A stretch of DNA of 32,000 bases from Marinilabiliaceae bacterium (GCA_016342595.1 JAEINY010000038.1:3807-35806), one strand, 5' to 3'; shown: positions 4,319 to 22,639, counted from the first letter of the stretch. The notes: a model not told the origin generated them from the sequence alone. Numbers and translations: made by a program.

Positions 4319-5017
4319 CTAAGCCAACAACCGTTCCAATTTCTCTTTCCATTTTTCCCAGTCAGGCATCATGCGATCCTGGAGTTCGAGGAATTTGGTG
4401 GTGTGATCGTGGTGGATGAGGTGGCAGAGTTCGTGGATGATGACATATTCGATGCAGGGGCGAGGGGCCTTGATGAGTTCGGGATTGAGTATGATTTTCC
4501 CCTTTGGGGTGCAGCTGCCCCAGCGGGTGGCCATTTCCTGGATGTAAAGATCTGAGGGTTCTATCTTGAAACGGGCAAATTTTTCGATGAGGGGCTGTGC
4601 GATCTCCTGAAATTTAACTTTGGCCCTTCTTCTGTACCATTGACTCATCAATTGCTTTACCTTGCTTTTGTCATTGGTGTATACTTCGATGAACCGGCCT
4701 TTGTAACGTACTTCTTCTTTTTTTGCTGCCGTTACTTTCAAGCGGTAGTGACGTCCCATGTAAAGATGCGATTCCCCACTGACAAAAAGCTTTTCCGGCA
4801 TCTTGGGATAAAAGGAGAGAAAATAACTTAATTGCTTAATAACCCATGGCGCCCGCTTTAGAACTTTTTCTCTGATCTTTTCTTGTGACGTACCCTCCGG
4901 TGCTTTCACCAATACTTCCATCTCCGGTGTAATTGTGATGCCCAAGGTTTTTCGTTCGGAAAAACTTATTGTGTAATCAATGGTTTTGGAACCAAATAGT
5001 ATTTCATCCTTCATCAC
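4319..5017 (-). CDS. YgjP/DUF45-like (M48-family) zinc metallopeptidase
   Basis: HExxH motif in VIIHELCHLIHHDHTTKFLELQDRMMPDWEKW, typical of the YgjP-like family often found next to hsdR. The start overlaps the hsdR stop by 4 nt (5014-5017). Confidence 0.8.
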   Translation of the reverse strand: MMKDEILFGSKTIDYTISFSERKTLGITITPEMEVLVKAPEGTSQEKIREKVLKRAPWVIKQLSYFLSFYPKMPEKLFVSGESHLYMGRHYRLKVTAAKKEEVRYKGRFIEVYTNDKSKVKQLMSQWYRRRAKVKFQEIAQPLIEKFARFKIEPSDLYIQEMATRWGSCTPKGKIILNPELIKAPRPCIEYVIIHELCHLIHHDHTTKFLELQDRMMPDWEKWKEKLERLLA

Positions 5018-8475: not shown

Positions 8476-9003
8476 TTAATGCACTTCATCTAATTTTTTC
8501 TTTTGTTTCTTCAGAATTTGTTTTTTTCCACCCTTTTCATTTAAATAATAGGCCGTGAGCAGGTAATAATCCATTCCACTCCTCTGAGGTTCCAAAATTA
8601 TCACGTACTCCTCCACATGATCATAGATATAGGTTCGAATCACATCTTTTCCCTTGATGCGATCTTCATGACTAAAAACGTCGATATTCGCCTTTCTCAA
8701 CTCATCGATATGTGTTTTAATCCAGTGCAACCTGACAGATCGGTGCATATCGAAAGAGCGCGCCCCGGTATTTTTACCTTTCTCGTCTTTATCCTCTTTG
8801 GTCGTCAGATGACCAAAAAGCGTTAACATGGGTGATTCTCCCTCTTTTTTTGTGGGACGAATTGCTTTTGACCTAAATTGAAAACTTACATTTTCCTCAA
8901 TGTCTTGTTTGAAAACACCCATCAATGATTTTTTTCTTTGATGGGGATTAAACTGAGCAATTTCCAACAATTCAGGATATGTTTTAATAAGATTAAACGG
9001 CAT
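8476..9003 (-). CDS. Hypothetical protein, translationally coupled partner of the DUF3800 gene
   Basis: ATG at 9001-9003 lies 7 nt after the DUF3800 stop (9011-9013). The longer track ORF (to 9105) would overlap DUF3800 by 95 nt. 175 aa, basic tail; contains RSVRLHWIKTHIDEL and YYLLTAYYL. No family recognised. Confidence 0.55.
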   Translation of the reverse strand: MPFNLIKTYPELLEIAQFNPHQRKKSLMGVFKQDIEENVSFQFRSKAIRPTKKEGESPMLTLFGHLTTKEDKDEKGKNTGARSFDMHRSVRLHWIKTHIDELRKANIDVFSHEDRIKGKDVIRTYIYDHVEEYVIILEPQRSGMDYYLLTAYYLNEKGGKKQILKKQKKKLDEVH

Positions 9004-9010
9004 ACCTGAA

Positions 9011-9679
9011 CTATTTAAGGTCGATGAAAAAGAGATTAAACTTATCCGCTGTTTTGGGCGTAGATTTTGTGATCGGCACCTTACAATGCTTTTCAATTCT
9101 TTCAATCAGCTTACATTTAGCAACGACCTTATTCTTCCCTCTCAACTTATAATTAATGGCCCCCATAATCAAATCAGCCAATTGCATAAAAACACTTTCG
9201 TGTGATCGAATAAATTGGAAATTACGAATGGATGCATTCCATTTCAACATTTCATTCAGACGATCTAGCTTCTTATAACTACGTGTATCTTTAATGTCGC
9301 AGTAGATGTTGTAGTTGTAACTTTGGTTGATTTTGTGGTGGAGCAACTGATAATACATTCGAAAGTAAAAATCGTCGTAAGTAAACTCCTCTCTGGATTC
9401 ATTAATTTGAGTCTTATCCACAATGATAGACCTGAAATTCATGTCGTTGGAAAAGAAATAATCAATTAAATCAGCATAGAAATAGTATTGGCCATTAGAA
9501 ACGTTTGACCATTTTATTTCTCCTCTTACTTTGTGTTTAGCTCTTATGGCTTTTATACTCTCTTTGTGTTGCTTCAGCTGATTATACGCCACGCTGACAT
9601 ATGCAATCATCATGAAAGGCATCCCATCATTCTGAAGATGGGTACTTTCATCGCAGTACATGTTAAAGGTTTTACTCAT
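9011..9679 (-). CDS. DUF3800-family protein
   Basis: N-terminal MYCDESTH (the family pattern is hydrophobic-DESG/T), GEIKWSNVS, and C-terminal HESVFMQLADLIMGAINY (QLAD motif), as I recall them for DUF3800. Confidence 0.6.
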   Translation of the reverse strand: MSKTFNMYCDESTHLQNDGMPFMMIAYVSVAYNQLKQHKESIKAIRAKHKVRGEIKWSNVSNGQYYFYADLIDYFFSNDMNFRSIIVDKTQINESREEFTYDDFYFRMYYQLLHHKINQSYNYNIYCDIKDTRSYKKLDRLNEMLKWNASIRNFQFIRSHESVFMQLADLIMGAINYKLRGKNKVVAKCKLIERIEKHCKVPITKSTPKTADKFNLFFIDLK

Positions 9680-9910
9680 GGCATTTCAATAACTACTATT
9701 TGACTATATTCCTAATTATTGTCTCTTGTCTCATCCTCACTTATTCCGGCGCATGGGGCTTCCTTGGGGATAACCACAATGCAATTGCGCCAAAAAACTT
9801 TACATCTTTCACCCAGGGCGATGTCCTGGGCTTTGATATCATGCCCTTTCAGGGCGCTATTGAGTGTCATTGTGATCTCATATGTATTCTATTTACTGAA
9901 GCATAACACT

Positions 9911-10102
9911 CTAAATAATGGGTATCTGATTTCGCCACATCCTTACCAGTTGTTCCACTTCGATGATGTTATCATCATTCAATTTAGTTTTAAGTTTTGT
10001 CGCTTTATTAAACGACTTCACTGCTACTTGATCCTTAGTTGTTGCAGCACATTTTGCTGCATGGATTTTTTCAATTTCTCTTTTTAAAATAAATGCTCTC
10101 AT
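9911..10102 (-). CDS. Small hypothetical protein (63 aa)
   Basis: ATG-initiated ORF in the same orientation as its neighbours, between the PIN-like gene and the DUF3800 leader. No recognisable motif. Confidence 0.3.
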   Translation of the reverse strand: MRAFILKREIEKIHAAKCAATTKDQVAVKSFNKATKLKTKLNDDNIIEVEQLVRMWRNQIPII

Positions 10103-10172
10103 AATAAATATTTATTATAAATACTAAAAATTTGAAAAAGCAATCGAAAATTCACTCATCCAGCTAAAAAAA

Positions 10173-10976
10173 TTATTTCTTTTCTTCCGATGTTACCAAC
10201 TTGTCGGAATTTTCTTTTGCTTCCTCCGTTTCCGGGACAAAAAGATACTTCTCCATGCCAGCTCTTTTAATAATATTGACCCATTTGGTATCGGCTGTCC
10301 AATATTTTCTTTGGGGTGTTACATAAATCATGTTAAAAAGGTCGAACCAATCATTTTCTTTTAACACTATCGCTCCTGTTTCCAGATCGTTGAAAACCAC
10401 TTTTAATACATTTTCGAAGAGTTCAATCTGCGACCAGTCGAAGCTATTGCTCAGCTCTGTATCTTTAGTTCTCAGTTGAACACACATGGAGATGAATGCT
10501 CTATTGGCAGGTATAGAGTCTTCTTTGCGATGCTTTTTTTTGTCCTTTATATTTGGCTTAATGGCTGCTGCAGTTGAGTTAAAACTATCGGCGGCTAATT
10601 TTAAATCATCTCGCCGTTTCTGGCAGTGAGCTTTAAAAGCGTCTGCCTTTTCCTCTGCAATATCATGACCTTTGGCCACCAATTTAGTAAACTGCAAGAT
10701 GGGCAGCAGTTCTTGTGCAGGATTGAAAAAGAATCTTGGATTATCCAATCTTTTTAAATAAACGAGAGGGGGTTCATAGATAGTACCCTTCGAATAAGTC
10801 ATTAATGCTTGAATTGCTTTCCGGGTTACTTCCGGATGCTTCAATAAATTCGGCGTACGTGACAATTCATCGATTGAGTGAAATGTTCCAATCAATTTAT
10901 GCTTAGAAAGAAAATCCTCAGTAGGGGGATTTTGCCCCAGGTGGTACCAGACATTTGTATCGCAAACTATTTCCAT
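10173..10976 (-). CDS. PIN-like nuclease-domain protein with a large insertion
   Basis: Starts MEIVCDTNVWYHL (PIN strand-1 D), then SIDEL, NDWFDLF and YWTADTKW, which could supply the remaining acidic residues. About 150 aa lie between the halves. The start is 8 nt after the hsdS stop. Confidence 0.4.
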   Translation of the reverse strand: MEIVCDTNVWYHLGQNPPTEDFLSKHKLIGTFHSIDELSRTPNLLKHPEVTRKAIQALMTYSKGTIYEPPLVYLKRLDNPRFFFNPAQELLPILQFTKLVAKGHDIAEEKADAFKAHCQKRRDDLKLAADSFNSTAAAIKPNIKDKKKHRKEDSIPANRAFISMCVQLRTKDTELSNSFDWSQIELFENVLKVVFNDLETGAIVLKENDWFDLFNMIYVTPQRKYWTADTKWVNIIKRAGMEKYLFVPETEEAKENSDKLVTSEEKK

Positions 10977-12352: not shown

Positions 12353-13825
12353 TTATTGTTGTTTTGATCCGTTTTCTTTTAATTGCTTTCGGTGATACTC
12401 TAAGTGATTGAACAAGGACTCTCCCCAAAGTTTATTTATTTCTTTTAATTCGTCTTTGGTAATTGGTTGATGGAGTAGCTTTTTTGCAAAACTAATTTCC
12501 CTTCGATTTTTAGCCTTAGTATCAAAAACGCCTAGTATTAATTCGTAATGGTATTGTTCGAACTTCACATCCAACCGGTAGTTACAACCAAAGGGATTTA
12601 AACCTCCTTTTTTATAGGCGCTAAAAGAGGTTTGAAATGATATTTCAGCAGACGGCAAGTGATCCTCATATGAGTTTCCTGTCGGTGTTTTTGAATACAC
12701 AATACCATTATCCGTTTTTACTTCGGCACGAGAAAACAAACTTTGTATTTTATCCAATTCAGGATTTTTATCAAACTTTATATAGGGGCCTTTACCATCT
12801 AAATTCAGGCTAATTGTATGTGCCGGCTTATCGTAAAACTCATTGAATTTTGAAGTTGTATTTGCTAATTGTGTTACTAAATCATACCCCCAGCTTTCCA
12901 ACGCGTTTTTTATCGCGCCATAAGTCAAATGATCTTTTATTTCATTTTCATCGTCCTCCTTTTCAATGTCTTGTTTCAGAAGCGCCAATTTTTTGTCCAG
13001 GTCATCCTCTTCATCGATGCTTTCTCCTTTGGCTCCTTTAATCATCAATTCCAACGAGCGATTTACCTGTTCGCAGATATAATTGAAGAAGTAAGCCAGT
13101 TCACCGGCATCCGCTTGTTGTAAAGCGGCCATGTAGTTTTCCTTATCCTCCGTTTTAACGATTGCCGGCGGATATCCCTTTTGCATCAGGATGAAGTTCA
13201 TGAGCAAACGTGCCAGGCGCCCGTTGCCATCATCAAAGGGATGGATACTAATAAAGCGGTAGTGAAATTCAGTGGCGAAAACTACCGGGTGCAGGTCTTC
13301 TTTGTCCTTGTTGTCATTGTACCACTGCAAGAGATCCCTCATCTTAACAGGCGTTTCCTCTGGCGATGCAAAGTGAAAAGTTTCACCTGTTTTGGTCACC
13401 ACATGATTTGGGGCTGTTTTGTATTGCCCCACAGCAATTGTTCGTGTCGTTGATTGACCATCTGCAGTAACGGCTTTAGATTCATATGGTTCTTTAAGAA
13501 TCATGACATGTAATTCACGAATGAACTTTTCTGTCAATGCTATCCCTTGTTTTATATCTTCTACCAACCATTTTATTGCCTCATCGTGCCCGGTCATCTC
13601 CAAATGATCCTTCAATGGTTTGGCTTGAGCAGTCATTCCAAACATGATGAGCGCTTTGGTCTCGCCAAAGGTGAGTTTATTGCCTTCGATGTTAGCCGAA
13701 TGATAGTTCCAGTCTAATCGAAACTTTTGCATGATGCGTTGCTCCACTTCAGCTGACAGGGGCCGAAAGGTATCTAACTCTTCTTTTAATTGTGATGCTC
13801 GTTTGAGGTTTTCTTTATATGGCAT
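12353..13825 (-). CDS. Fic/DOC-family protein (class II layout) with ~270-aa C-terminal extension
   Basis: Canonical Fic motif HPFDDGNGRLAR (aa 195-206, nt 13208-13243). N-terminal inhibitory-helix motif SANIEG fits [ST]xxxE[GN] (aa 43-48). Sits between hsdM and hsdS. Confidence 0.85.
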   Translation of the reverse strand: MPYKENLKRASQLKEELDTFRPLSAEVEQRIMQKFRLDWNYHSANIEGNKLTFGETKALIMFGMTAQAKPLKDHLEMTGHDEAIKWLVEDIKQGIALTEKFIRELHVMILKEPYESKAVTADGQSTTRTIAVGQYKTAPNHVVTKTGETFHFASPEETPVKMRDLLQWYNDNKDKEDLHPVVFATEFHYRFISIHPFDDGNGRLARLLMNFILMQKGYPPAIVKTEDKENYMAALQQADAGELAYFFNYICEQVNRSLELMIKGAKGESIDEEDDLDKKLALLKQDIEKEDDENEIKDHLTYGAIKNALESWGYDLVTQLANTTSKFNEFYDKPAHTISLNLDGKGPYIKFDKNPELDKIQSLFSRAEVKTDNGIVYSKTPTGNSYEDHLPSAEISFQTSFSAYKKGGLNPFGCNYRLDVKFEQYHYELILGVFDTKAKNRREISFAKKLLHQPITKDELKEINKLWGESLFNHLEYHRKQLKENGSKQQ

Positions 13826-15433: not shown

Positions 15434-15997
15434 TTATTTTGTTAATGCGTTTAATATTTTCTGATCTATCACTTTATCTTTCAGGGCCGTAATTCTATCT
15501 GACAATTGCCTCTCTCTATTTCGAAGTTGCTCGAAATGTAATATTGCTTTTTGCTTGTCCATTGTTGGTACCAACAACTCTAATTCACCAACTGTACTTT
15601 TGTTGATGGAGAGTAGGTTCGTCCCCTTGGCACCGGCCGTTAATTGTTTTTGCACCTTGGGATGGTTGATTTGCCAGGCTAGAAACTGTGGTAGTATCAC
15701 TTGCTGCTTCACCTCTCTCAATACCAAAAACATGGACGAGGCTACAGCCGGCGTCACCTCATCGTGGTATACGGCTGCGAAAAAATCCCCTGCTTTGGCA
15801 GCAATGAGCAGGTTTCCTTTTTGGAGCAGATGCTTACTGACAGAGTTTGAGCCACTAATGTTGGGATTTAGTCCGACCTTCAGCTTGCGCTGTTCATCAA
15901 AATCCCTGGCTTGCAGGTAGTAAACATCACCTACTGCAGAGGTTTTTGTATATATCCCCGTTGATATTATAGATATGTCTTTTACTTTTATCTTCAT
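15434..15997 (-). CDS. hsdS: Half-size type I specificity subunit (single TRD)
   Basis: 187 aa: one TRD-like region plus a C-terminal coiled helix (TMDKQKAILHFEQLRNRERQLSDRITALKDKV). The stop is 2 nt before the hsdM ATG. The helix differs from that of the full HsdS. Confidence 0.65.
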   Translation of the reverse strand: MKIKVKDISIISTGIYTKTSAVGDVYYLQARDFDEQRKLKVGLNPNISGSNSVSKHLLQKGNLLIAAKAGDFFAAVYHDEVTPAVASSMFLVLREVKQQVILPQFLAWQINHPKVQKQLTAGAKGTNLLSINKSTVGELELLVPTMDKQKAILHFEQLRNRERQLSDRITALKDKVIDQKILNALTK

Positions 15998-16027: not shown

Positions 16028-16153
16028 ATAAACACAGGTTAAACATGCAAGTATATTTTTAAGTATATTTTCTACAAAACTTAAACCGCAACCATACTCT
16101 GCTGACTTAGTGCATCATAAAAATAGATACAAAACAGTACACTTGAATTGCTA

Positions 16154-18829
16154 TCAATAACCAATTACCGTATCTAGAACATGTAATGCCACCTTATAGT
16201 CTTCGGTTTTCACTTTTAATGCAGTTGCTTCTTCTACTGCATAGTATTCATCCTGATGTTCCTCTAATTGCTCAATCAATTTACTGATATCATGATCGCC
16301 ATTCCCATTGCTATGATTGACCAAATGTTGAACCATAAAGCTTGAATATGCTTCATCTAACCAAATGTTTTTGCTATTTGAATTGGAATACTTACGAATG
16401 AGCAGATTTTTGGCTAGTAGGTATCTGTAATAAAACACTCTTATTTGCCGTGGGGTCACGTTTTTCAACAATCGAATCTTCTCTCTGAGAAATGCGACTT
16501 CTTCTTTGGTTAACTTGCCATTTAAATTCCTGATACCAGCTTCTTCTTCAGCGTTTGTGTTAGATGTATTATTAATTTGTTTTACTTCGTTACTAACCGA
16601 ATCCTCCATTGTCAGCTGATCTTCTTCATTTGAAATGGTATCTTCAAATTCAGTTTCTCCACCATTTTCACTAAGTTTTTCTAATTCTGCTGATTCTCTA
16701 TCTTCCTTTGTTAGCTCCAAAAAGAACTCATCTTTATTTTCAGGAGTCAGTTCGTGCAGTTTTAAACCCAGAATAAAAAGTTTATCGATGTATTCGGACA
16801 CCAATAGGTCGATATTCGTTGATTCATCGTTTGACTTCACCAATGTGTCGTACTTATGTCGTATTGCTCTTTTTAACAATCGTTCATCAATCGCAGCGAC
16901 CACAATTAGTTTCCTGGCCAATTCATTATCGTCTAACATCACTCTTAAAGAATCAATTATCTGAATGATTCGTTCTTCGGAGCAGCGATCTATGTCATCT
17001 ACAAAGAGCAGTATTTTACGATCTTTTTTACACCATGCTTTTACAAGGTGTTTTAATTCTTTTTGAACTTCGGCCTGTACTCCTAAAACATTTGAAAAGG
17101 AAGTTTTTCCATAGTATTTTTCAAATAACTCCCTGGCCGAGTTGTTGTATTTAAAGTAGAGAACAAGCGAACTGACAACAGTACTGAAACCTATTGCACT
17201 TACAATTCTATAAACAAAATATACTCTGTCCAGTGGCGGAATAAAGAATGTGATTAATGATGATAGAATAACTGATACAAAGAACCAAATTGCTTTGCTT
17301 ATGCCTATCCTGGCAAAATTTAGTTTAAACCTTCTTAACGGGCTTTTCCAAAATTTAAACCAAGAGTCTTTAGGGTCTTTGTAATAGGCGGATGCGAACT
17401 GTTCATACAGGTAAGCCCAAATAGCCGGTGTTTCCTGGTATTTCCAGGCATGAAAATCAACTCTGGCAAACTTATCATCTTTCTGAAAGCAGTTCCAGGT
17501 TTGATTCATTAAGAAGGTCTTGCCACGGCCCCACTCTCCAAAAATACCAATCATGCGGCCTTGTTCGTAGGGCATCTTTTTGATTATTTCACAAAGCTCT
17601 TCGGCAATGTCTTTTACGCCAATGACACCGTTCAGTGCTTCTTTATCTCGGAAGAGGACATCTGTTTTTTTGAATTTGATTGAGTTATTCTTTGCTATAA
17701 TGTCCCCATCAAAAGAAATAGCGCTTTCTAACTTTTTTGTATTATCAAAATAATCAAGAACTCTAAGTTTCGTTTTATCTTCGAAGAATCTTAAAAAACG
17801 ATTAATTATACTAAGCAATTGCAAACCAGAACCAAAGTTTCTTAATAAAATAATGTTGTAAACATTAGGCAAATCAACTCCTGTTGTCAATAGGTCTACA
17901 GATGTTAACACCCTAATATCTCTAACCCTCCTAAATTCTGAAAGAATATGCTGATTATCCCTGTTTGATTGAGAACTAATTATTGCTTTGGAGTATTGTT
18001 CATTGTTTGTGATACTATTCAACTTTTCAGATAATCTCGTTGCAAACTCTTGATTAGAACAAAATATAACCGTTTGTTGGTCATTAATTTCATTTACTAT
18101 TGATTTGGCTAAGATACTGAGGCTTGAATCATTGTTATAAAATGCATCAGACTTATTAATAGAGGTTGAACTGATACTATCCACTCCTAAAGAAGGTGTA
18201 TCTATATCTGATAATGTATTTATTCTGGAATATTCATATGGAAGAAGATACTTATCTTCAATTGCTTTTTGTAATGAATATCTATATACAAGACCTCCAA
18301 AGAATGATCTAGATTTATCTGGGAACGCATCTATTCCCATAATTGTAGCCGTAGTGAAATGCTCTAAGATCCCCTGAGTTTGACTGTTTTCTTTACCTAC
18401 TCCTAGAAACTCGCATTCAAAAAGTACAATTAATTTAAATGTATCAGACTTGAATTCCTTTAAGACATCAGACTTAGCTAATAATCTACCTATTGTTAGC
18501 ACCGTAATTATTGAATCAGATCTTTCGTCACCCAAAGATGAACTGTCTCTTACTTTATCTTCGCCAAAGAGATTAATAATGCTGGGATTAAAAACACGTT
18601 TAATCTCATTTTTAATTTGTATTTCCTGTAGCTTCGTAGCCACTACTAAAAGTGTTTTTCCTTTGTAGATGTTTGTAATTGAAGCGTAATATTCCTTTAA
18701 AATTTGTAATACTGTGTGATTTCCTCCAACCCCATGTGGAAATTGGAGAAGGATTCTCTTTTGCTTTTCAATAAGCGGGACCACCTTTTTAATGGCTTCA
18801 ATTTGGAAGTATCTAAGTTCGCTTTTCAA
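16154..18829 (-). CDS. Fusion protein: degenerate SF2 helicase-like N-terminal half and KAP-family P-loop NTPase with an intradomain TM hairpin
   Basis: Helicase layout in aa 1-350, but motif I reads PHGVGGNHT and motif II LFECEF. TTGVDLP is kept. KAP half: GEWGRGKT (aa 431-438), hydrophobic helices at aa ~510-531 and ~537-558, LLFVDDIDRC (aa 607-616), and TPRQIRVFYYRY near the C-terminus. Confidence 0.75.
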   Translation of the reverse strand: MKSELRYFQIEAIKKVVPLIEKQKRILLQFPHGVGGNHTVLQILKEYYASITNIYKGKTLLVVATKLQEIQIKNEIKRVFNPSIINLFGEDKVRDSSSLGDERSDSIITVLTIGRLLAKSDVLKEFKSDTFKLIVLFECEFLGVGKENSQTQGILEHFTTATIMGIDAFPDKSRSFFGGLVYRYSLQKAIEDKYLLPYEYSRINTLSDIDTPSLGVDSISSTSINKSDAFYNNDSSLSILAKSIVNEINDQQTVIFCSNQEFATRLSEKLNSITNNEQYSKAIISSQSNRDNQHILSEFRRVRDIRVLTSVDLLTTGVDLPNVYNIILLRNFGSGLQLLSIINRFLRFFEDKTKLRVLDYFDNTKKLESAISFDGDIIAKNNSIKFKKTDVLFRDKEALNGVIGVKDIAEELCEIIKKMPYEQGRMIGIFGEWGRGKTFLMNQTWNCFQKDDKFARVDFHAWKYQETPAIWAYLYEQFASAYYKDPKDSWFKFWKSPLRRFKLNFARIGISKAIWFFVSVILSSLITFFIPPLDRVYFVYRIVSAIGFSTVVSSLVLYFKYNNSARELFEKYYGKTSFSNVLGVQAEVQKELKHLVKAWCKKDRKILLFVDDIDRCSEERIIQIIDSLRVMLDDNELARKLIVVAAIDERLLKRAIRHKYDTLVKSNDESTNIDLLVSEYIDKLFILGLKLHELTPENKDEFFLELTKEDRESAELEKLSENGGETEFEDTISNEEDQLTMEDSVSNEVKQINNTSNTNAEEEAGIRNLNGKLTKEEVAFLREKIRLLKNVTPRQIRVFYYRYLLAKNLLIRKYSNSNSKNIWLDEAYSSFMVQHLVNHSNGNGDHDISKLIEQLEEHQDEYYAVEEATALKVKTEDYKVALHVLDTVIGY

Positions 18830-18954: not shown

Positions 18955-20253
18955 TTAAACGACCTGATCTAGTTTTATCTCCATCCATTCCAGGATCAGC
19001 TCATCGGCAATGGTTCTTTGCCAGGTTATCATAGTTTCATCCGGTTCGATAGATAATACACTGCACTCTTTATCTGATAGATTTACACCTGAGGTTTCGT
19101 AATATTTGCCTGAACAAACAGTGGATTTTCCCGGGTAGACCAATGCTACTTTTTGAGCATTGAAATATTGGTGGTAAACATACAACTGCCTCAGGTGATC
19201 GGGCGATGGAACACTTCCTCCCAAATTCTTCCATTTGGTATCGAGGATAAAATGTTTCACCTTTTCTTCCGGATGCTTCTTAATGGTAGATACGAGAATG
19301 TCCGGTCTCATGGTAGAATTTCTGCCACTTTCTGAGTGCCAAAACTTTTTGGATGATTGTTCTTTTACCCATAAATGGCCCCTACCGTATTTTCTCAGGC
19401 TTACATATATGAACTTCTCCCATAGTTTATTCATGTCGAACATTAATGAAAGTACATCTTTTTGGCCTTTACTTACATCGGGATGGTAGTTGAGCAATAA
19501 GAGGCGTGCTATCTCAATGGCATTTTGATAGCCTTTGTTTTTTCGGTTAAAAACTATTTTCTCAAAAGTTGCCTCTGCCACGTTGAAGTCAGGCATCTCC
19601 GGAAAATTCAGAGACAATGCCCCCAACTTACTATTCAATTGAGCATTACTGTTTATCTGCTGAATCAGCTTTAAAGTCTTGTAGATGATCTGGTGAATAA
19701 GATGTTGTTGGTCGTAGGTTGTATATTTGACGAAGAACCTTTCCTGATGCACCAGGTTTTTTTGCAGGTGCTTTCCAAAGTGTAAGGCACCTTTAAGTGC
19801 TGTACTATTTCCTTCTGTCTTCCGGTATTTTTTTATGAGCCCTTTGTGTAACAGGTATTCCACCTCTTTGATAAAGAGTTCGAAATAGAGATCGAGAATA
19901 AAATTGGATTTCAGGCTTAAGGCAGAAGAGGTGGGTGCTTTGATATCAAAAGCACCTACCGCTTTTAGCATGCCGATCAATATCTTACGCCATTGATCCT
20001 TTTTTCTATACCGGTCGGCTTTTGGAAGTACTTCAATAATCAGATTACCTACCTGCAGCACCCCTACGAATTCATTGAATTTAACACCTTTGTGAATGAG
20101 ATTAAAATAGGGCACACCTTTTCCATGGAACTTTTCCAATGCCTCATGATGTTTGGCTGTGAATATTATTTTATCGTAGGTATCACCCACTTTTAGTGAC
20201 TGATGTTCGAATACCGGGATTCTTTGAAATTGGCTAGTTGGCATTGTAGTCAA
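18955..20253 (-). CDS. mcrC: McrC-like nuclease subunit
   Basis: 432 aa, overlapping the McrB stop by 20 nt. C-terminal PD-(D/E)xK signature RPDILVS...FILDTKWK. Confidence 0.85.
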   Translation of the reverse strand: MTTMPTSQFQRIPVFEHQSLKVGDTYDKIIFTAKHHEALEKFHGKGVPYFNLIHKGVKFNEFVGVLQVGNLIIEVLPKADRYRKKDQWRKILIGMLKAVGAFDIKAPTSSALSLKSNFILDLYFELFIKEVEYLLHKGLIKKYRKTEGNSTALKGALHFGKHLQKNLVHQERFFVKYTTYDQQHLIHQIIYKTLKLIQQINSNAQLNSKLGALSLNFPEMPDFNVAEATFEKIVFNRKNKGYQNAIEIARLLLLNYHPDVSKGQKDVLSLMFDMNKLWEKFIYVSLRKYGRGHLWVKEQSSKKFWHSESGRNSTMRPDILVSTIKKHPEEKVKHFILDTKWKNLGGSVPSPDHLRQLYVYHQYFNAQKVALVYPGKSTVCSGKYYETSGVNLSDKECSVLSIEPDETMITWQRTIADELILEWMEIKLDQVV

Positions 20254-22639
20254 TTTCGTTCATTAACTTTCTTAGAGCATCTTTAAAGCTTTCCACACTC
20301 ATAGCTAAAGGATCAGAAATGGTGTACATGGTTTGCTCAAGGAAGCCATCTGTATCGTAATCGCTGGTCACTTTTGCAAAAACTGAATTCCCGTTACTTG
20401 CATCCGCTTTTTCACCTTTGCAGAAACCTTCGCCCAATACCAATGCAATTTTACCATAATCGCCATAGAAATATTCCTGCAGCAATGGAATGATCTCATT
20501 ACTAAAAGAAGCTTGCAGACTTTCTTCATTATGTACTTTCATAAAGAAACTATGGCCAATCAAGTGATCTTTGTCCAGAAGGATGTTGATTCGATTATTG
20601 ATGATGTTTAGCATTTTAGGCAAATCAACTTCATAGTCTCCAATTGATATTTTAGCGTCTGCTTCTTTAAGTTTCCCGTGTTCTCTAATTAAACCGGCAT
20701 CTGGTGGCATTTCTGTAAAGCTAAAACGACGGCGTAAGGCTGTATCCAATGCTTCCACACTGCGGTCGGCCGTGTTCATGGTACCAATGATGTGGAGGTT
20801 TTGAGGCACCCCAAATTCTTTTTTGCTATATGGCAAGGTTACTTTTAGGGCTTCTTCTTTCCCCAGGCGTTTGTTTTCTTCAATAAGAGTGATGAGCTCT
20901 CCAAAAATGGCAGATACATTTCCCCGGTTTATTTCATCAATGATGAGGACGTATTTTTGATTCGAATTGTCGTGTATTTCCTCAGTGAAGTCAGAGGCAT
21001 TAAGGATTTCATTAATTACAACAGCTTCATAAGATTTGTAAATTGGATCTTTACCTTCAAACAATACCTGTTTAAGTTCATTGAAAGACAGACTCATTGG
21101 AGTTTTCTTTTCCCCTGCTTTTACAACGATCGTATTATTCGAGTTTTTATACAGTTTGAAAGATGTTTTGTCATGGACAGTTTTAAGTATTACAGTTGAA
21201 TCTGAAGCGGTATGTAGCGGTAATGAATCTGCAAAACTTTGATAGTATTCTCTAAAGATATCGAGTGTCAACTCTGTCAGTTCATCTTCAATTTGAATTT
21301 TAATATTTTTAGATTGAGTAGCTTCTTTACAAATAAGCTTGAAAACTCCACCTTCCACGGTGTATGTCACCTGCTGACCTTCCTCCTTGGGCTCCTGGGG
21401 TTTGATACCTTCCACAAAATCTTCATAACTCATACTTTGGTGAAAGGTGATGAATACGATTTGGTTGTTATCTACCAGACGGTCGTATTCGTGTTTGATT
21501 ATTTTCCATTCCCGATCCAATTTGAAATCCGGATTGATGATTTCAATGGCTTTTTTTATTGAGTTATAGGTTTTACCGGTTCCGGGAGGGCCGAAGAGGA
21601 TTTGGTTGAGGGGGTGGTTCATGCTTTTTGTATCTGATTCATTAATTTTTTGTGTTGCAGCTTTGGAATGATGGGATCCATTGGACATTAAAAATGGTGA
21701 TAAGTTATCTTGTCTAGGGTAATCGAAGCCGTCAATGGTATTTAGTTTTTCTCTTGAGACGGGTGGTGAAACTTTTTTAAAGTCGCTGCATAAGAAGACA
21801 ATTTTTGCAGATTTGTTATCATCAGCATACTGATCCATTGATTTCCTGAAGTGTAATATTTCATTTTTCTCAGGCCAAGATCTGAGGTGCTCATCTTTGG
21901 TTGCTATTTTTATTATTCGTGCTGTGTAGGTTAGTTCTTTATTCTGAATGTAGGATAAGTCAAAATACCCGAATCTTTTTATCGTTTCATTTAGCTCCTT
22001 TATGGTTTTATTGGTGCCAGATGGTTTTTTACTGTTCCAAATTGTGGAATATTGACCATTCGAGCTTTCACGCTCTTCAATGTGATCATCATGCCATCCC
22101 GTATTGTCAGAGGCTAATAAACCAACTCTTTGTTCTGAAATAGATAGTATTTCAGGAACTGATGGTTTGATTTTACTTTCATAGAAGTCTATTATCTTTT
22201 TAGAAAGGTCATCATAACTATTGAATTCTAATATTTCATCGAAACTAAAATTGGATTCAACTCCCTTAACTTTTCTGAAATTTAATAGTTCACCTCTTTT
22301 ATTTAGTTCTTCATCCCATGTGTCAGAGTCAATTCTTAAGTAAAAATCGTCTTCAACTGAATAGGCTAATGAAATATCCAGGTTAGCCCATTTTTCAGTT
22401 GGGTAAACACGGTACCAGAGGTAATTTTTGATGTTTTTCCCGGTTGGAACAGGATTCCAGGTTTTGCTGTCTTTCTTGTAATTAAATGCATTTAAAGTTT
22501 CTTTAAGAAGATTTGTCAGATATTCTAGCTTCTTATGAAGTTGATTTATTAATTCGAGATCTTCTGAGGAAACCTGTTTTTGGTTTGTCCCTTTGTTATT
22601 TTTAAATGCATTGAGCTCTGCAAGTGTTATATATTCCAT
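20234..22639 (-). CDS. mcrB: McrB-like AAA+ GTPase subunit with a ~340-aa non-canonical N-terminal region
   Basis: ILFGPPGTGKTY (Walker A), YVLIIDEINRGNVSAIFGELITLIE, and IIGTMNTADRSVEALDTALRRRFSF are McrB hallmarks. The N-terminal 340 aa were not recognised. Confidence 0.9.
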   Translation of the reverse strand: MEYITLAELNAFKNNKGTNQKQVSSEDLELINQLHKKLEYLTNLLKETLNAFNYKKDSKTWNPVPTGKNIKNYLWYRVYPTEKWANLDISLAYSVEDDFYLRIDSDTWDEELNKRGELLNFRKVKGVESNFSFDEILEFNSYDDLSKKIIDFYESKIKPSVPEILSISEQRVGLLASDNTGWHDDHIEERESSNGQYSTIWNSKKPSGTNKTIKELNETIKRFGYFDLSYIQNKELTYTARIIKIATKDEHLRSWPEKNEILHFRKSMDQYADDNKSAKIVFLCSDFKKVSPPVSREKLNTIDGFDYPRQDNLSPFLMSNGSHHSKAATQKINESDTKSMNHPLNQILFGPPGTGKTYNSIKKAIEIINPDFKLDREWKIIKHEYDRLVDNNQIVFITFHQSMSYEDFVEGIKPQEPKEEGQQVTYTVEGGVFKLICKEATQSKNIKIQIEDELTELTLDIFREYYQSFADSLPLHTASDSTVILKTVHDKTSFKLYKNSNNTIVVKAGEKKTPMSLSFNELKQVLFEGKDPIYKSYEAVVINEILNASDFTEEIHDNSNQKYVLIIDEINRGNVSAIFGELITLIEENKRLGKEEALKVTLPYSKKEFGVPQNLHIIGTMNTADRSVEALDTALRRRFSFTEMPPDAGLIREHGKLKEADAKISIGDYEVDLPKMLNIINNRINILLDKDHLIGHSFFMKVHNEESLQASFSNEIIPLLQEYFYGDYGKIALVLGEGFCKGEKADASNGNSVFAKVTSDYDTDGFLEQTMYTISDPLAMSVESFKDALRKLMNEIDYNAN

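Follow-up and report, generated by a model that had tools for sequence, protein, structure and literature searches.

A 32,000-nucleotide (nt) stretch of DNA from a Marinilabiliaceae bacterium (GCA_016342595.1, JAEINY010000038.1:3807-35806; referred to here as the window) encodes an 891-amino-acid (aa) protein that joins a two-RecA superfamily 2 (SF2) helicase module (aa 1-375), in which the ATPase motifs have been lost, to a KAP P-loop NTPase (aa ~400-891) that has kept its motifs and carries a predicted two-helix membrane hairpin. The helicase half probably cannot hydrolyse ATP, a conclusion that is well supported by the motif alignments described below. We see about an even chance that the protein is a stand-alone, membrane-anchored switch directed against phages or mobile elements, with the pseudo-helicase as its sensor and the KAP ATPase as both switch and effector.

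The open reading frame (ORF), 16154-18829 on the minus strand with a TTG start, was recovered from the ORF listing as the initial annotation, made by a model from the sequence alone, had described it, and its product matches a hypothetical protein from a Marinilabiliaceae metagenome-assembled genome with 100% identity. The same annotation knew of no characterised protein with this architecture, and our searches bear this out. No PADLOC 2.0 system model fits the protein, the partial matches being to type I restriction endonuclease, PbeA, QatA, and PifA; no full-length copy occurs in 72,556 plasmids or 50,697 phages; and no description of a helicase-KAP fusion was found in the literature searched, the coverage of which is incomplete and does not include the founding KAP paper of Aravind et al. 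(2004).

Loss of the ATPase motifs in the helicase-like half

Pfam searches placed ResIII (aa 3-171, 49 bits) and Helicase_C (aa 241-347, 36.5 bits), both above their curated cut-offs, in the N-terminal half of the protein, and KAP_NTPase (PF07693; aa 407-753, profile positions 3-280 of 293) in the C-terminal half with 98.4 bits against a cut-off of 20. The protein starts directly at a helicase Q-motif, LRYFQ, and the first RecA-like lobe (RecA1) begins at aa 1, with the N-terminal nuclease domain absent. An alignment of aa 6-374, made with HMMER, to 3H1T, a solved HsdR fragment from Vibrio vulnificus (expectation value, E, 1.6e-22), revealed the Q-motif and motifs I to VI in the order and with the spacing found in 3H1T and type IB HsdR proteins. 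The SF2 fold is therefore recognisable from two tandem RecA lobes with their motifs in the usual order, in agreement with the helicase layout proposed in the initial annotation.

The same alignment disclosed the replacement of most residues expected in the ATPase site. Motif I, PHGVGGNHT, lies opposite ATGTGKTVV, with Lys exchanged for Gly and Thr for Asn; in motif II, F137-E-C-E140 stands opposite D-E-C-H, and Glu-138 occupies the site of the DExH catalytic Glu. Motif III has D167-A-F opposite T-A-T, and SIINRFLR in motif VI corresponds to QIVGRGTR, while motif V (LLTTGVDLP) is retained. The protein thus has neither the GxGK[ST] of motif I and the hhhhDE of motif II nor the TAT/SAT of motif III and the QxxGRxxR of motif VI that mark an active SF2 enzyme. 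Motifs I and II, the retained TTGVDLP, and the motif VI-like remnant had been placed by eye in the initial annotation, and the possibility that they were misplaced can be set aside, as alignment with 3H1T and with over 100 HsdR proteins puts them at the same positions; the loss of motif III is an addition to that list.

Erosion of these motifs extends across the family, as judged from an alignment of 40 members that underlies all motif and conservation counts given here. In motif I, GK[ST] is kept in 10 of the 40, a Lys without Ser/Thr is present in 8, and the Lys is gone in 22. An adjacent DE near motif II was seen only in one member (P0043), where it is out of Walker B register, and Sphingobacteriia-type members with GKT have motif II deleted outright. 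Neither [ST]A[ST] at motif III nor a canonical motif VI occurs in any member (0/40 for each), and none joins motifs I, II, III, and VI into a complete helicase ATPase site (0/40). The comparison of homologues that had been proposed as a check on the GKT and DExH losses is consequently in line with the expectation that the N-terminal half probably is unable to hydrolyse ATP.

The nearest model to the N-terminal half is NCBIfam restrict_EcoAI (EcoAI/FtnUII family, NF046051; E 5.9e-38), matched only at positions 156-550 of 768 and with a score of 130.8 bits against a cut-off of 550. An exhaustive phmmer search with aa 1-385 against 1.84 billion representatives returned 3320 matches at E <= 1e-3 and 279 at E <= 1e-10. 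Beyond the protein's own family, these matches were proteins of 750-830 aa aligned at approximately residues 150-560, a layout typical of type IB HsdR. On plasmids, the proteins matching this part of the query bear the annotation EcoAI/FtnUII family HsdR. Nearly all of the ~130 non-family matches carry canonical GTGKT, DE[CA]H, TAT, and QxxGRGxR motifs, and the few non-canonical ones are partly degenerate proteins of other lengths. Among the matches listed, the eroded pattern (a CE-like end of motif II and IGxD in motif III) belongs to further KAP-fused family members. Because the nearest relatives outside the family are almost all canonical, the motif erosion is, on the alignment evidence, specific to the helicase-KAP family and not due to chance.

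Type IB HsdR, represented by 3H1T, provides the best match to aa 1-380 in both sequence and fold, and these comparisons indicate that the N-terminal half is derived from an EcoAI/EcoEI-type (type IB) HsdR motor. It is not itself an HsdR, however, since a full-length HsdR has an N-terminal PD-(D/E)xK nuclease and a C-terminal domain; the protein described here is without both, and its motifs I, II, III, and VI are non-canonical. The net charge of the N-terminal module (median -3.5 in the family) equals that of genuine HsdR motors and is not basic.

Structure predictions are in agreement with the sequence data. AlphaFold2 (AF2) was run on the family alignment for the full protein, and aa 391-891 were modelled separately. 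The full-length model had a mean predicted local distance difference test score (pLDDT) of 76, with the RecA lobes and the KAP core mostly at 80-93 and predicted disorder at aa 86-103, 207-226, 375-384, and 720-769. A Foldseek search of the N-terminal half against the PDB returned 3H1T first (E 4e-14, root-mean-square deviation 3.8 Å), followed by RadD and SauUSI, and these three as well as XPB were matched with a probability of 1.00. A pure binding role is indicated for this half, since the enzymatic site appears to be switched off while the fold is kept.

An intact KAP NTPase with a predicted membrane hairpin

All columns that are invariant in the 40 sequences lie at residue 402 or beyond, and none falls within aa 1-401. 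The KAP motifs WGRGK[TS]F and FV[DE]DxDRC and the C-terminal TPRQxR are essentially fixed. In Walker A, Gly-431, Trp-433 to Lys-437, and Phe-439 are invariant in 40/40 and position 438 is Thr or Ser in 40/40; in Walker B, Phe-609, Asp-612, Asp-614, Arg-615, and Cys-616 are invariant across the family and position 611 is Asp or Glu. The GxxGxGK[ST] and hhhhDD.DR patterns of a KAP NTPase are both intact, and the description of this half as canonical, with Lys-437 in GRGKT, DDIDRC, and two hydrophobic helices, holds.

Hydropathy and the AF2 helices place two transmembrane helices between Lys-437 of Walker A and Asp-611/Asp-612 of Walker B, which is the topology first suggested for the protein. 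Two Kyte-Doolittle windows exceed 1.6, AF2 assigns helices at aa 510-528 and 532-560 that are helical in both models, and seven Lys/Arg residues immediately precede the first hydrophobic helix. Such a hairpin, of the KAP type, would place both the pseudo-helicase and the NTPase in the cytoplasm.

The AF2 model of aa 391-891 reached a pLDDT of 81.6 and a predicted template modelling score (pTM) of 0.75. Foldseek identified RdrA as the nearest solved fold (E 1.4e-5, template modelling score about 0.4), then ORC/Cdc6 and BrxC; no solved KAP structure was detectable via sequence or profile search. RdrA (8HRB, 8HR8) is the ring-forming, oligomerising sensor/scaffold ATPase of the anti-phage system RADAR, and it is a distant match (template modelling score 0.25-0.41, 13-21% identity). 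It differs from the KAP half in being soluble, in having no transmembrane hairpin, and in working with the deaminase RdrB.

Between the KAP core and the C-terminal domain lies an acidic segment that had been noted at aa ~700-765 and that we delimit at aa 700-770, where Asp and Glu make up 31% and Lys and Arg 7% of the residues and AF2 predicts disorder over aa 720-769. The linker is acidic in 40/40 members, with a net charge of -5 to -20 (median -12.5) and 25% Asp plus Glu against a background of 13.6%, despite a sequence that is only ~20% identical across the family. KAP siblings with other N-terminal modules have a linker of similar length with a median net charge of -4.5; a Mann-Whitney comparison gave p 4e-11, a value that is no true probability, the sequences being non-independent. 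One possibility is that the linker is a charge-based regulatory element. Its pairing with a basic helicase surface was considered and found unsupported, the N-terminal modules having the same median charge (-3.5) as real HsdR motors.

The C-terminal helical domain, with TPRQIR at aa 792-797, is the most constrained part of the gene according to the substitution rates given below. Coordinates of all features are collected in Table 1.

Table 1. Features of the fusion gene and of the upstream Tmn/YobI-family gene, in nucleotide positions of the window.
Feature	Position	Strand	Basis and remarks
Whole gene, 891-aa pseudo-helicase and KAP NTPase fusion	16154..18829	-	TTG start at 18829, stop at 16154-16156; ORF listing
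RecA1-like lobe, aa 1-200	18230..18829	-	Pfam ResIII; NCBIfam EcoAI-type HsdR model from position 156; AF2 pLDDT mostly 75-93
Motif I (Walker A) remnant PHGVGGNHT, aa 31-39	18713..18739	-	3H1T alignment; GTGKT in outgroup HsdR
Motif II remnant LFECEF, aa 136-141	18407..18424	-	DECH replaced by FECE; family consensus hhhh-x-x-C-E, never hhhhDE
Motif III remnant IMGIDAFP, aa 163-170	18320..18343	-	TAT replaced by DAF
RecA2-like lobe, aa 225-375	17705..18157	-	Pfam Helicase_C; AF2 pLDDT 80-93; best Foldseek matches 3H1T, RadD, SauUSI
Motif V LLTTGVDLP, aa 313-321	17867..17893	-	Kept in this protein, not conserved across the family
Motif VI remnant LSIINRFLRF, aa 339-348	17786..17815	-	Two Arg kept; Gln and both Gly gone
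KAP-family P-loop NTPase core, aa 400-720	16670..17632	-	Pfam KAP_NTPase; AF2 model of the half; nearest solved fold RdrA, then ORC/Cdc6
KAP Walker A GEWGRGKTF, aa 431-439, Lys-437	17513..17539	-	Family alignment
Predicted membrane hairpin, helices at aa ~508-531 and 538-560	17150..17308	-	Kyte-Doolittle hydropathy, flanking charges, AF2 helices
KAP Walker B LLFVDDIDRC, aa 607-616	16982..17011	-	Family alignment
Acidic linker, aa 700-770	16520..16732	-	Composition, AF2 disorder, family charges
C-terminal helical domain, aa 771-891	16157..16519	-	Near-invariant TPRQIR-FYYRY motif; dN/dS 0.05
Tmn/YobI-family NTPase, 1458 aa	22687-27063	-	YobI 7.7e-99; PADLOC Tmn 8.4e-83

A rare Bacteroidota family and its genomic setting

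Approximately 45 proteins from independent assemblies share the full fusion architecture at 31-43% identity, in addition to one orthologue with 91% identity. An assembly chimera of two joined genes, raised in the initial annotation as a result that would undo its reading, was rejected, the same fusion being present in all of these independent assemblies, including that of the 91% orthologue on an 866-kb contig. All family members that carry a taxon name are Bacteroidota. A pattern search through 185,579 genomes, one for each species, recovered 115 KAP-clade relatives, of which ~10 have the helicase half, and every classified one of these is again from the Bacteroidota.

The two halves have diverged to different degrees, the N-terminal one evolving roughly twice as fast. 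Pairs of family members are on average 24% identical over the helicase half, 51% over the KAP core, and 40% over the C-terminal domain, and eight positions in the N-terminal half (Gly-35, Leu-60, Phe-177, Gly-178, Ala-189, Asn-271, Leu-308, and Asp-359) are at least 90% conserved. Ratios of nonsynonymous to synonymous rates (dN/dS), calculated by the Nei-Gojobori method from one pair with small counts, the target and its 91% orthologue, were 0.55 in aa 1-385, 0.18 in aa 386-700, and 0.05 in aa 771-891; within the helicase half, RecA1 had 0.41, which is below neutrality. Fast divergence of the kind seen in the N-terminal half is typical of specificity or sensor domains. Synonymous divergence (dS) between the two orthologous genes (16154-18829 in the window and 10001-12658 in L001, the locus of the orthologue) is uneven, with 0.08 in the helicase half, 0.03 in RecA2, and 0.32 in the KAP core, which suggests recent recombination or module exchange within the gene.

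To the KAP half, different N-terminal modules are attached in different relatives. Local clustering of the region before Walker A in the 120 closest KAP relatives gave at least 17 unrelated groups. Precomputed Pfam annotations identify EVE, TIR, Clp_N, and PG-binding among these modules, and a scan of 10 representatives indicated that most of the others are without a Pfam family. In a rough neighbour-joining tree of the KAP half (unbootstrapped), helicase-fused proteins are interleaved with proteins bearing other N-terminal modules and do not form a single pure clade. This interleaving, together with the uneven dS, suggests that N-terminal modules have been exchanged on a conserved KAP chassis. 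Such a chassis, swapping EVE, TIR, helicase-like, and many unknown modules, resembles the swapping of sensors in STAND/Avs proteins.

All genes of the window between 4319 and 27865 are on the minus strand. In the order of transcription, a 215-aa ORF with a weak P-loop, the Tmn/YobI-family transmembrane NTPase, McrB, and McrC precede the fusion gene, which is followed by a half-size HsdS, HsdM, a Fic/SoFic-like protein, HsdS, a 267-aa unknown ORF, PDC-M04 A/B, HsdR, and a YgjP-like peptidase. Its position between McrBC and Tmn on one side and a type I restriction-modification (R-M) system with Fic and PDC-M04 genes on the other supports a defence setting. The resident HsdR (SWI2_SNF2/HSDR_N/T1RH-like_C) belongs to another HsdR family than type IB. 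The 91% orthologue is located in the same island.

Several features of this neighbourhood were observed in their own right. McrBC is flanked, within a single co-oriented block, by two distinct P-loop NTPases with membrane insertions, Tmn and the KAP fusion, and the orthologous island L001 has kept this arrangement. McrB (20234-22639, minus strand) is long at 801 aa, with AAA_5 starting only at aa ~340-560; its N-terminal ~340 aa have no Pfam match and may form an unusual DNA-reading domain, and mcrB and mcrC overlap by 20 nt. A half-size HsdS-like ORF of 187 aa (15434-15997, minus strand) lies directly upstream of hsdM, a full HsdS (444 aa) being present as well, and a Fic-domain protein of 490 aa (12353-13825, minus strand; PADLOC PDC-S04/SoFic-like) separates hsdM from hsdS; in the related genome, a second Fic gene (288 aa) is found here. 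Different cargo occupies the hsdS-hsdR slot of the type I R-M operon in this and a closely related genome: in the window (8476-10976, minus strand) it consists of the 267-aa ORF and the PDC-M04A (DUF3800)/PDC-M04B pair, and in L001 (18743-21119) of a Pycsar-like set with a Guanylate_cyc cyclase, a 319-aa protein, and PycTM. No similarity was detectable between the two cargo sets, and the slot looks like a cargo-exchange hotspot inside an R-M operon. The YgjP-like metallopeptidase gene (4319-5017, minus strand; PF01863, 3.1e-56) appears translationally coupled to the restriction subunit, since it overlaps the end of hsdR by 4 nt.

A scan for sigma-70 promoters and terminators around the fusion gene, which is ill-suited to Bacteroidota, gave nothing above shuffled expectation. 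In the intergenic region at 16030-16075 (minus strand) we found a direct repeat, AAAATATACTT, in two copies 3 nt apart, and a TATTTTTG element ~30-35 nt upstream of the ATG of the half-size hsdS, which we take to match the Bacteroidetes TAnnTTTG -7 consensus. A promoter or operator of their own for the R-M genes may lie in this region.

No recurrent neighbour or conserved partner gene was found in eight annotated contexts (the 91% orthologue and seven further ones). One homologue (P0020) adjoins a Panacea toxin-antitoxin pair and a type IB R-M system, and others adjoin an integrase or a 1922-aa DEAD+MZB protein and RteC, or have an Mrr gene and a relaxase nearby. R-M genes occur within 10 kb in ~4 of 11 helicase-KAP lineages, compared with 14 of 71 loci of KAP siblings with other N-terminal modules. 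An obligate link to type I R-M or McrBC was accordingly rejected, R-M being near in so few lineages and at a rate similar to that of the siblings; the proximity is defence-island behaviour and not a specific partnership.

A possible membrane switch and competing explanations

KAP NTPases were first proposed to regulate membrane-associated complexes (cited in PMC13552941). They were proposed as defence proteins twenty years ago, and protection from phages was shown only in 2026, when KAP NTPases fused to unannotated regions were found to protect Enterococcus faecalis, Walker B and the fused region each being required (PMC13552941). EF_KAP and three KAP proteins from gut metagenomes (PLoS Biol 2026, PMC13552941) are, like the protein studied here, single KAP polypeptides with transmembrane helices and a variable fused region, and the gene described here resides in a defence island. 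In contrast, their variable region is C-terminal and has no recognisable fold, whereas the region fused here is an N-terminal SF2 motor with a dead ATPase site. The known examples come from Firmicutes and gut metagenomes and the present clade from Bacteroidota; the comparison between them is one of architecture.

Other membrane or KAP-type ATPases of anti-phage systems offer partial parallels. Tmn, of the YobI family, assembles as a decamer that exports Mg2+, and it detects the phage protein RIIB by means of a variable domain (PMC13001434). It resembles the fusion protein in being a P-loop NTPase with two transmembrane helices between Walker A and Walker B, acts as a single-gene defence with a membrane output, and has a homologue three genes upstream in the window. 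Unlike the fusion, it has no helicase-like module, and its NTPase belongs to YobI-ATPase and not to KAP_NTPase; neither YobI-ATPase (PF20693) nor the PADLOC Tmn model is among the matches of the fusion protein. PifA, an F-plasmid protein of the KAP family, excludes T7 with membrane leakage and an abortive phenotype (described in PMC13552941 and PMC13001434). It is likewise a single protein, and the PADLOC PifA model matches aa 404-495 weakly (4.7e-10), covering only the Walker A region; PifA lacks a helicase module and also transmembrane helices (PMC13001434). QatA, the KAP-type ATPase of QatABCD, is matched at aa 392-755 by its NCBIfam model (E 1.8e-15) and by PADLOC (1.4e-11), with a score of 56.7 bits against a cut-off of 600 that leaves the protein outside QatA. 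Furthermore, QatA works in a four-gene system and without a helicase module, and no QatB-, QatC-, or QatD-like genes adjoin the fusion gene, its neighbours being McrC and the half-size HsdS.

These comparisons allow a mechanism to be outlined. The N-terminal 375 aa are, on the sequence evidence, a pseudo-enzyme, descended from an HsdR translocase that lost its nuclease, its C-terminal domain, and its ATPase site but kept its fold, and would act as a ligand-binding, specificity-determining sensor. Retention of the fold, fast divergence, and the presence of other N-terminal modules on related KAP chassis all favour such a role. The ligand might be invader nucleic acid, or else a phage protein whose usual target is a motor of this kind. 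The role first suggested for this protein, in which a membrane NTPase carries a sensor that binds nucleic acid, is plausible, and a phage protein could also be the ligand, as nothing marks nucleic acid over phage protein. Binding would then be relayed to the intact KAP NTPase, held by the hairpin on the cytoplasmic face of the inner membrane, where ATP binding and hydrolysis could drive oligomerisation or a conformational change. This change may in turn disturb the membrane or its ion balance and so stop phage development.

Several observations weigh against this model. EF_KAP reportedly does not act by abortive infection (PMC13552941), and mechanisms may thus differ among KAP proteins. The membrane-effector step is drawn purely by analogy with PifA and Tmn, and the hairpin is predicted only from hydropathy and AF2 helices. 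In RecA2, dN/dS is ~1.3 (3 synonymous against 15 nonsynonymous changes), and relaxed constraint instead of an arms race of a sensor could explain this ratio as well as the high divergence. Nucleic-acid binding in particular is not specifically supported by the helicase DNA-contact motifs Ia, IV, and V, which are not conserved across the family, or by the charge of the module, which is not net basic. Finally, not all homologues reside in defence islands, as one (P0011; L003 7340-12323) lies between genes for an extracytoplasmic function (ECF) sigma factor and a FecR-type anti-sigma factor, upstream of a TonB-dependent receptor/SusD, and another has an unremarkable Pedobacter neighbourhood.

The alternatives to this sensor model differ mainly in what they ask of the N-terminal half. 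A special case of the model, with a protein as ligand, would be a guard or decoy, in which the HsdR-like pseudo-motor traps phage anti-restriction proteins and their binding triggers the KAP ATPase as a second line after restriction has been disabled. The closest relatives of the module, which are bona fide EcoAI/EcoEI-type HsdR motors, the adjoining type I R-M and/or McrBC genes in several lineages, a fast-evolving surface with dispensable catalysis, and the triggering of the related membrane NTPase Tmn by a phage protein (PMC13001434) would all fit. We nevertheless regard it as rather unlikely, because R-M proximity is no higher than in the KAP siblings (14/71) and is absent in most lineages, and the HsdR of the window belongs to a family other than the type IB motor that would be mimicked. 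The well-studied anti-restriction proteins Ocr and ArdA, moreover, target the methyltransferase core and not HsdR. An elaborated form, in which the pseudo-motor is bait for HsdR-engaging phage factors or invading DNA, the acidic linker holds this bait shut by imitating DNA within the same molecule, and a ligand that displaces the linker frees KAP to assemble in the membrane, seems to us somewhat more doubtful. It is likewise unlikely that the helicase-like half has no function and survives as a decaying remnant of an ancestral fusion, with the KAP NTPase doing everything. The lack of invariant columns in aa 1-401, the mean identity of only 24%, the dN/dS of 0.55 in the N-terminal half with its excess in RecA2, and the different forms that motif erosion takes in different members are what such a relic would show. 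On the other hand, the module is full-length, without truncation or frameshift, in ~40 lineages at 31-43% identity, both lobes are confidently predicted as RecA folds (pLDDT 80-93), eight of its positions are at least 90% conserved, RecA1 is below neutrality, and a useless 1.1-kb segment would be expected to be deleted in bacteria.

A role outside immunity, as a membrane-tethered factor for DNA handling or signalling in mobile elements or the host (conjugative entry or exclusion, envelope signalling), would account for the several homologues near integrase, relaxase/MobC, or RteC genes and for the copy lodged between the genes of an ECF sigma factor and its anti-sigma factor FecR, and it would accord with the original proposal for KAP NTPases as regulators of membrane-associated complexes. 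We consider it improbable in view of the dense packing of the window with defence genes, the absence of a full-length copy from the plasmids and phages searched, and the patchy, rare distribution (~10 of 185,579 species representatives); a variable context without a partner is, moreover, the signature of a defence gene and not of housekeeping or transfer machinery. Even less can be said for an alternative R subunit, with the HsdR-like module docking on the neighbouring type I methyltransferase (M2S) and linking DNA recognition to a membrane ATPase. Here the immediate upstream position to the half-size hsdS and hsdM, in the window and in the 91% orthologue, the further type I system near P0020, and the HsdR ancestry of the motor are met by the finding that type I R-M is nearby in only 2 of ~11 lineages and that the region beyond the HsdR motor is missing (EcoAI model positions 156-550 of 768 only). 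In EcoR124I, the C-terminal domain of HsdR is the part that contacts the methyltransferase. The R-M operon near P0020 is also on the opposite strand, past the toxin-antitoxin pair, and the TAnnTTTG element before the half-size hsdS suggests, as weak evidence, separate transcription; docking of this kind is very unlikely. The least probable reading is that ATP is still hydrolysed in the N-terminal half through non-canonical residues, or that its binding there works as a regulatory switch. Glu-138 at the site of the catalytic Glu, the two Arg of motif VI, and GK[ST] in 10 of 40 relatives, some of which may still bind nucleotide, speak for it; the Lys and Thr of Walker A are, however, gone, as is the Asp that would coordinate Mg, these positions are not conserved, most members with GK[ST] have lost motif II altogether, and no member combines motifs I, II, III, and VI.

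The sensor model is the reading that we continue to prefer. Both modules and the general logic of their fusion are already known, and the helicase-KAP family is small and rare. If the model is correct, it would add a prokaryotic pseudo-helicase immune sensor to the pseudo-helicases of eukaryotes, of which Utp25 is one. Were the form with a decoy and a DNA-mimic linker to prove true, it would mark the first case in bacteria of a dead helicase serving as an immune sensor, and would for the first time tie the failure of restriction mechanistically to a membrane-level response. The fused module described here, having a known fold and ancestry, offers an unusually readable entry point into the way in which KAP NTPases sense infection. 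It raises testable questions as to the binding partner of the pseudo-motor and whether binding drives ATP-dependent assembly at the membrane. Even if its function turned out to be non-defensive, the family would be a clean example of family-wide pseudo-enzyme evolution.

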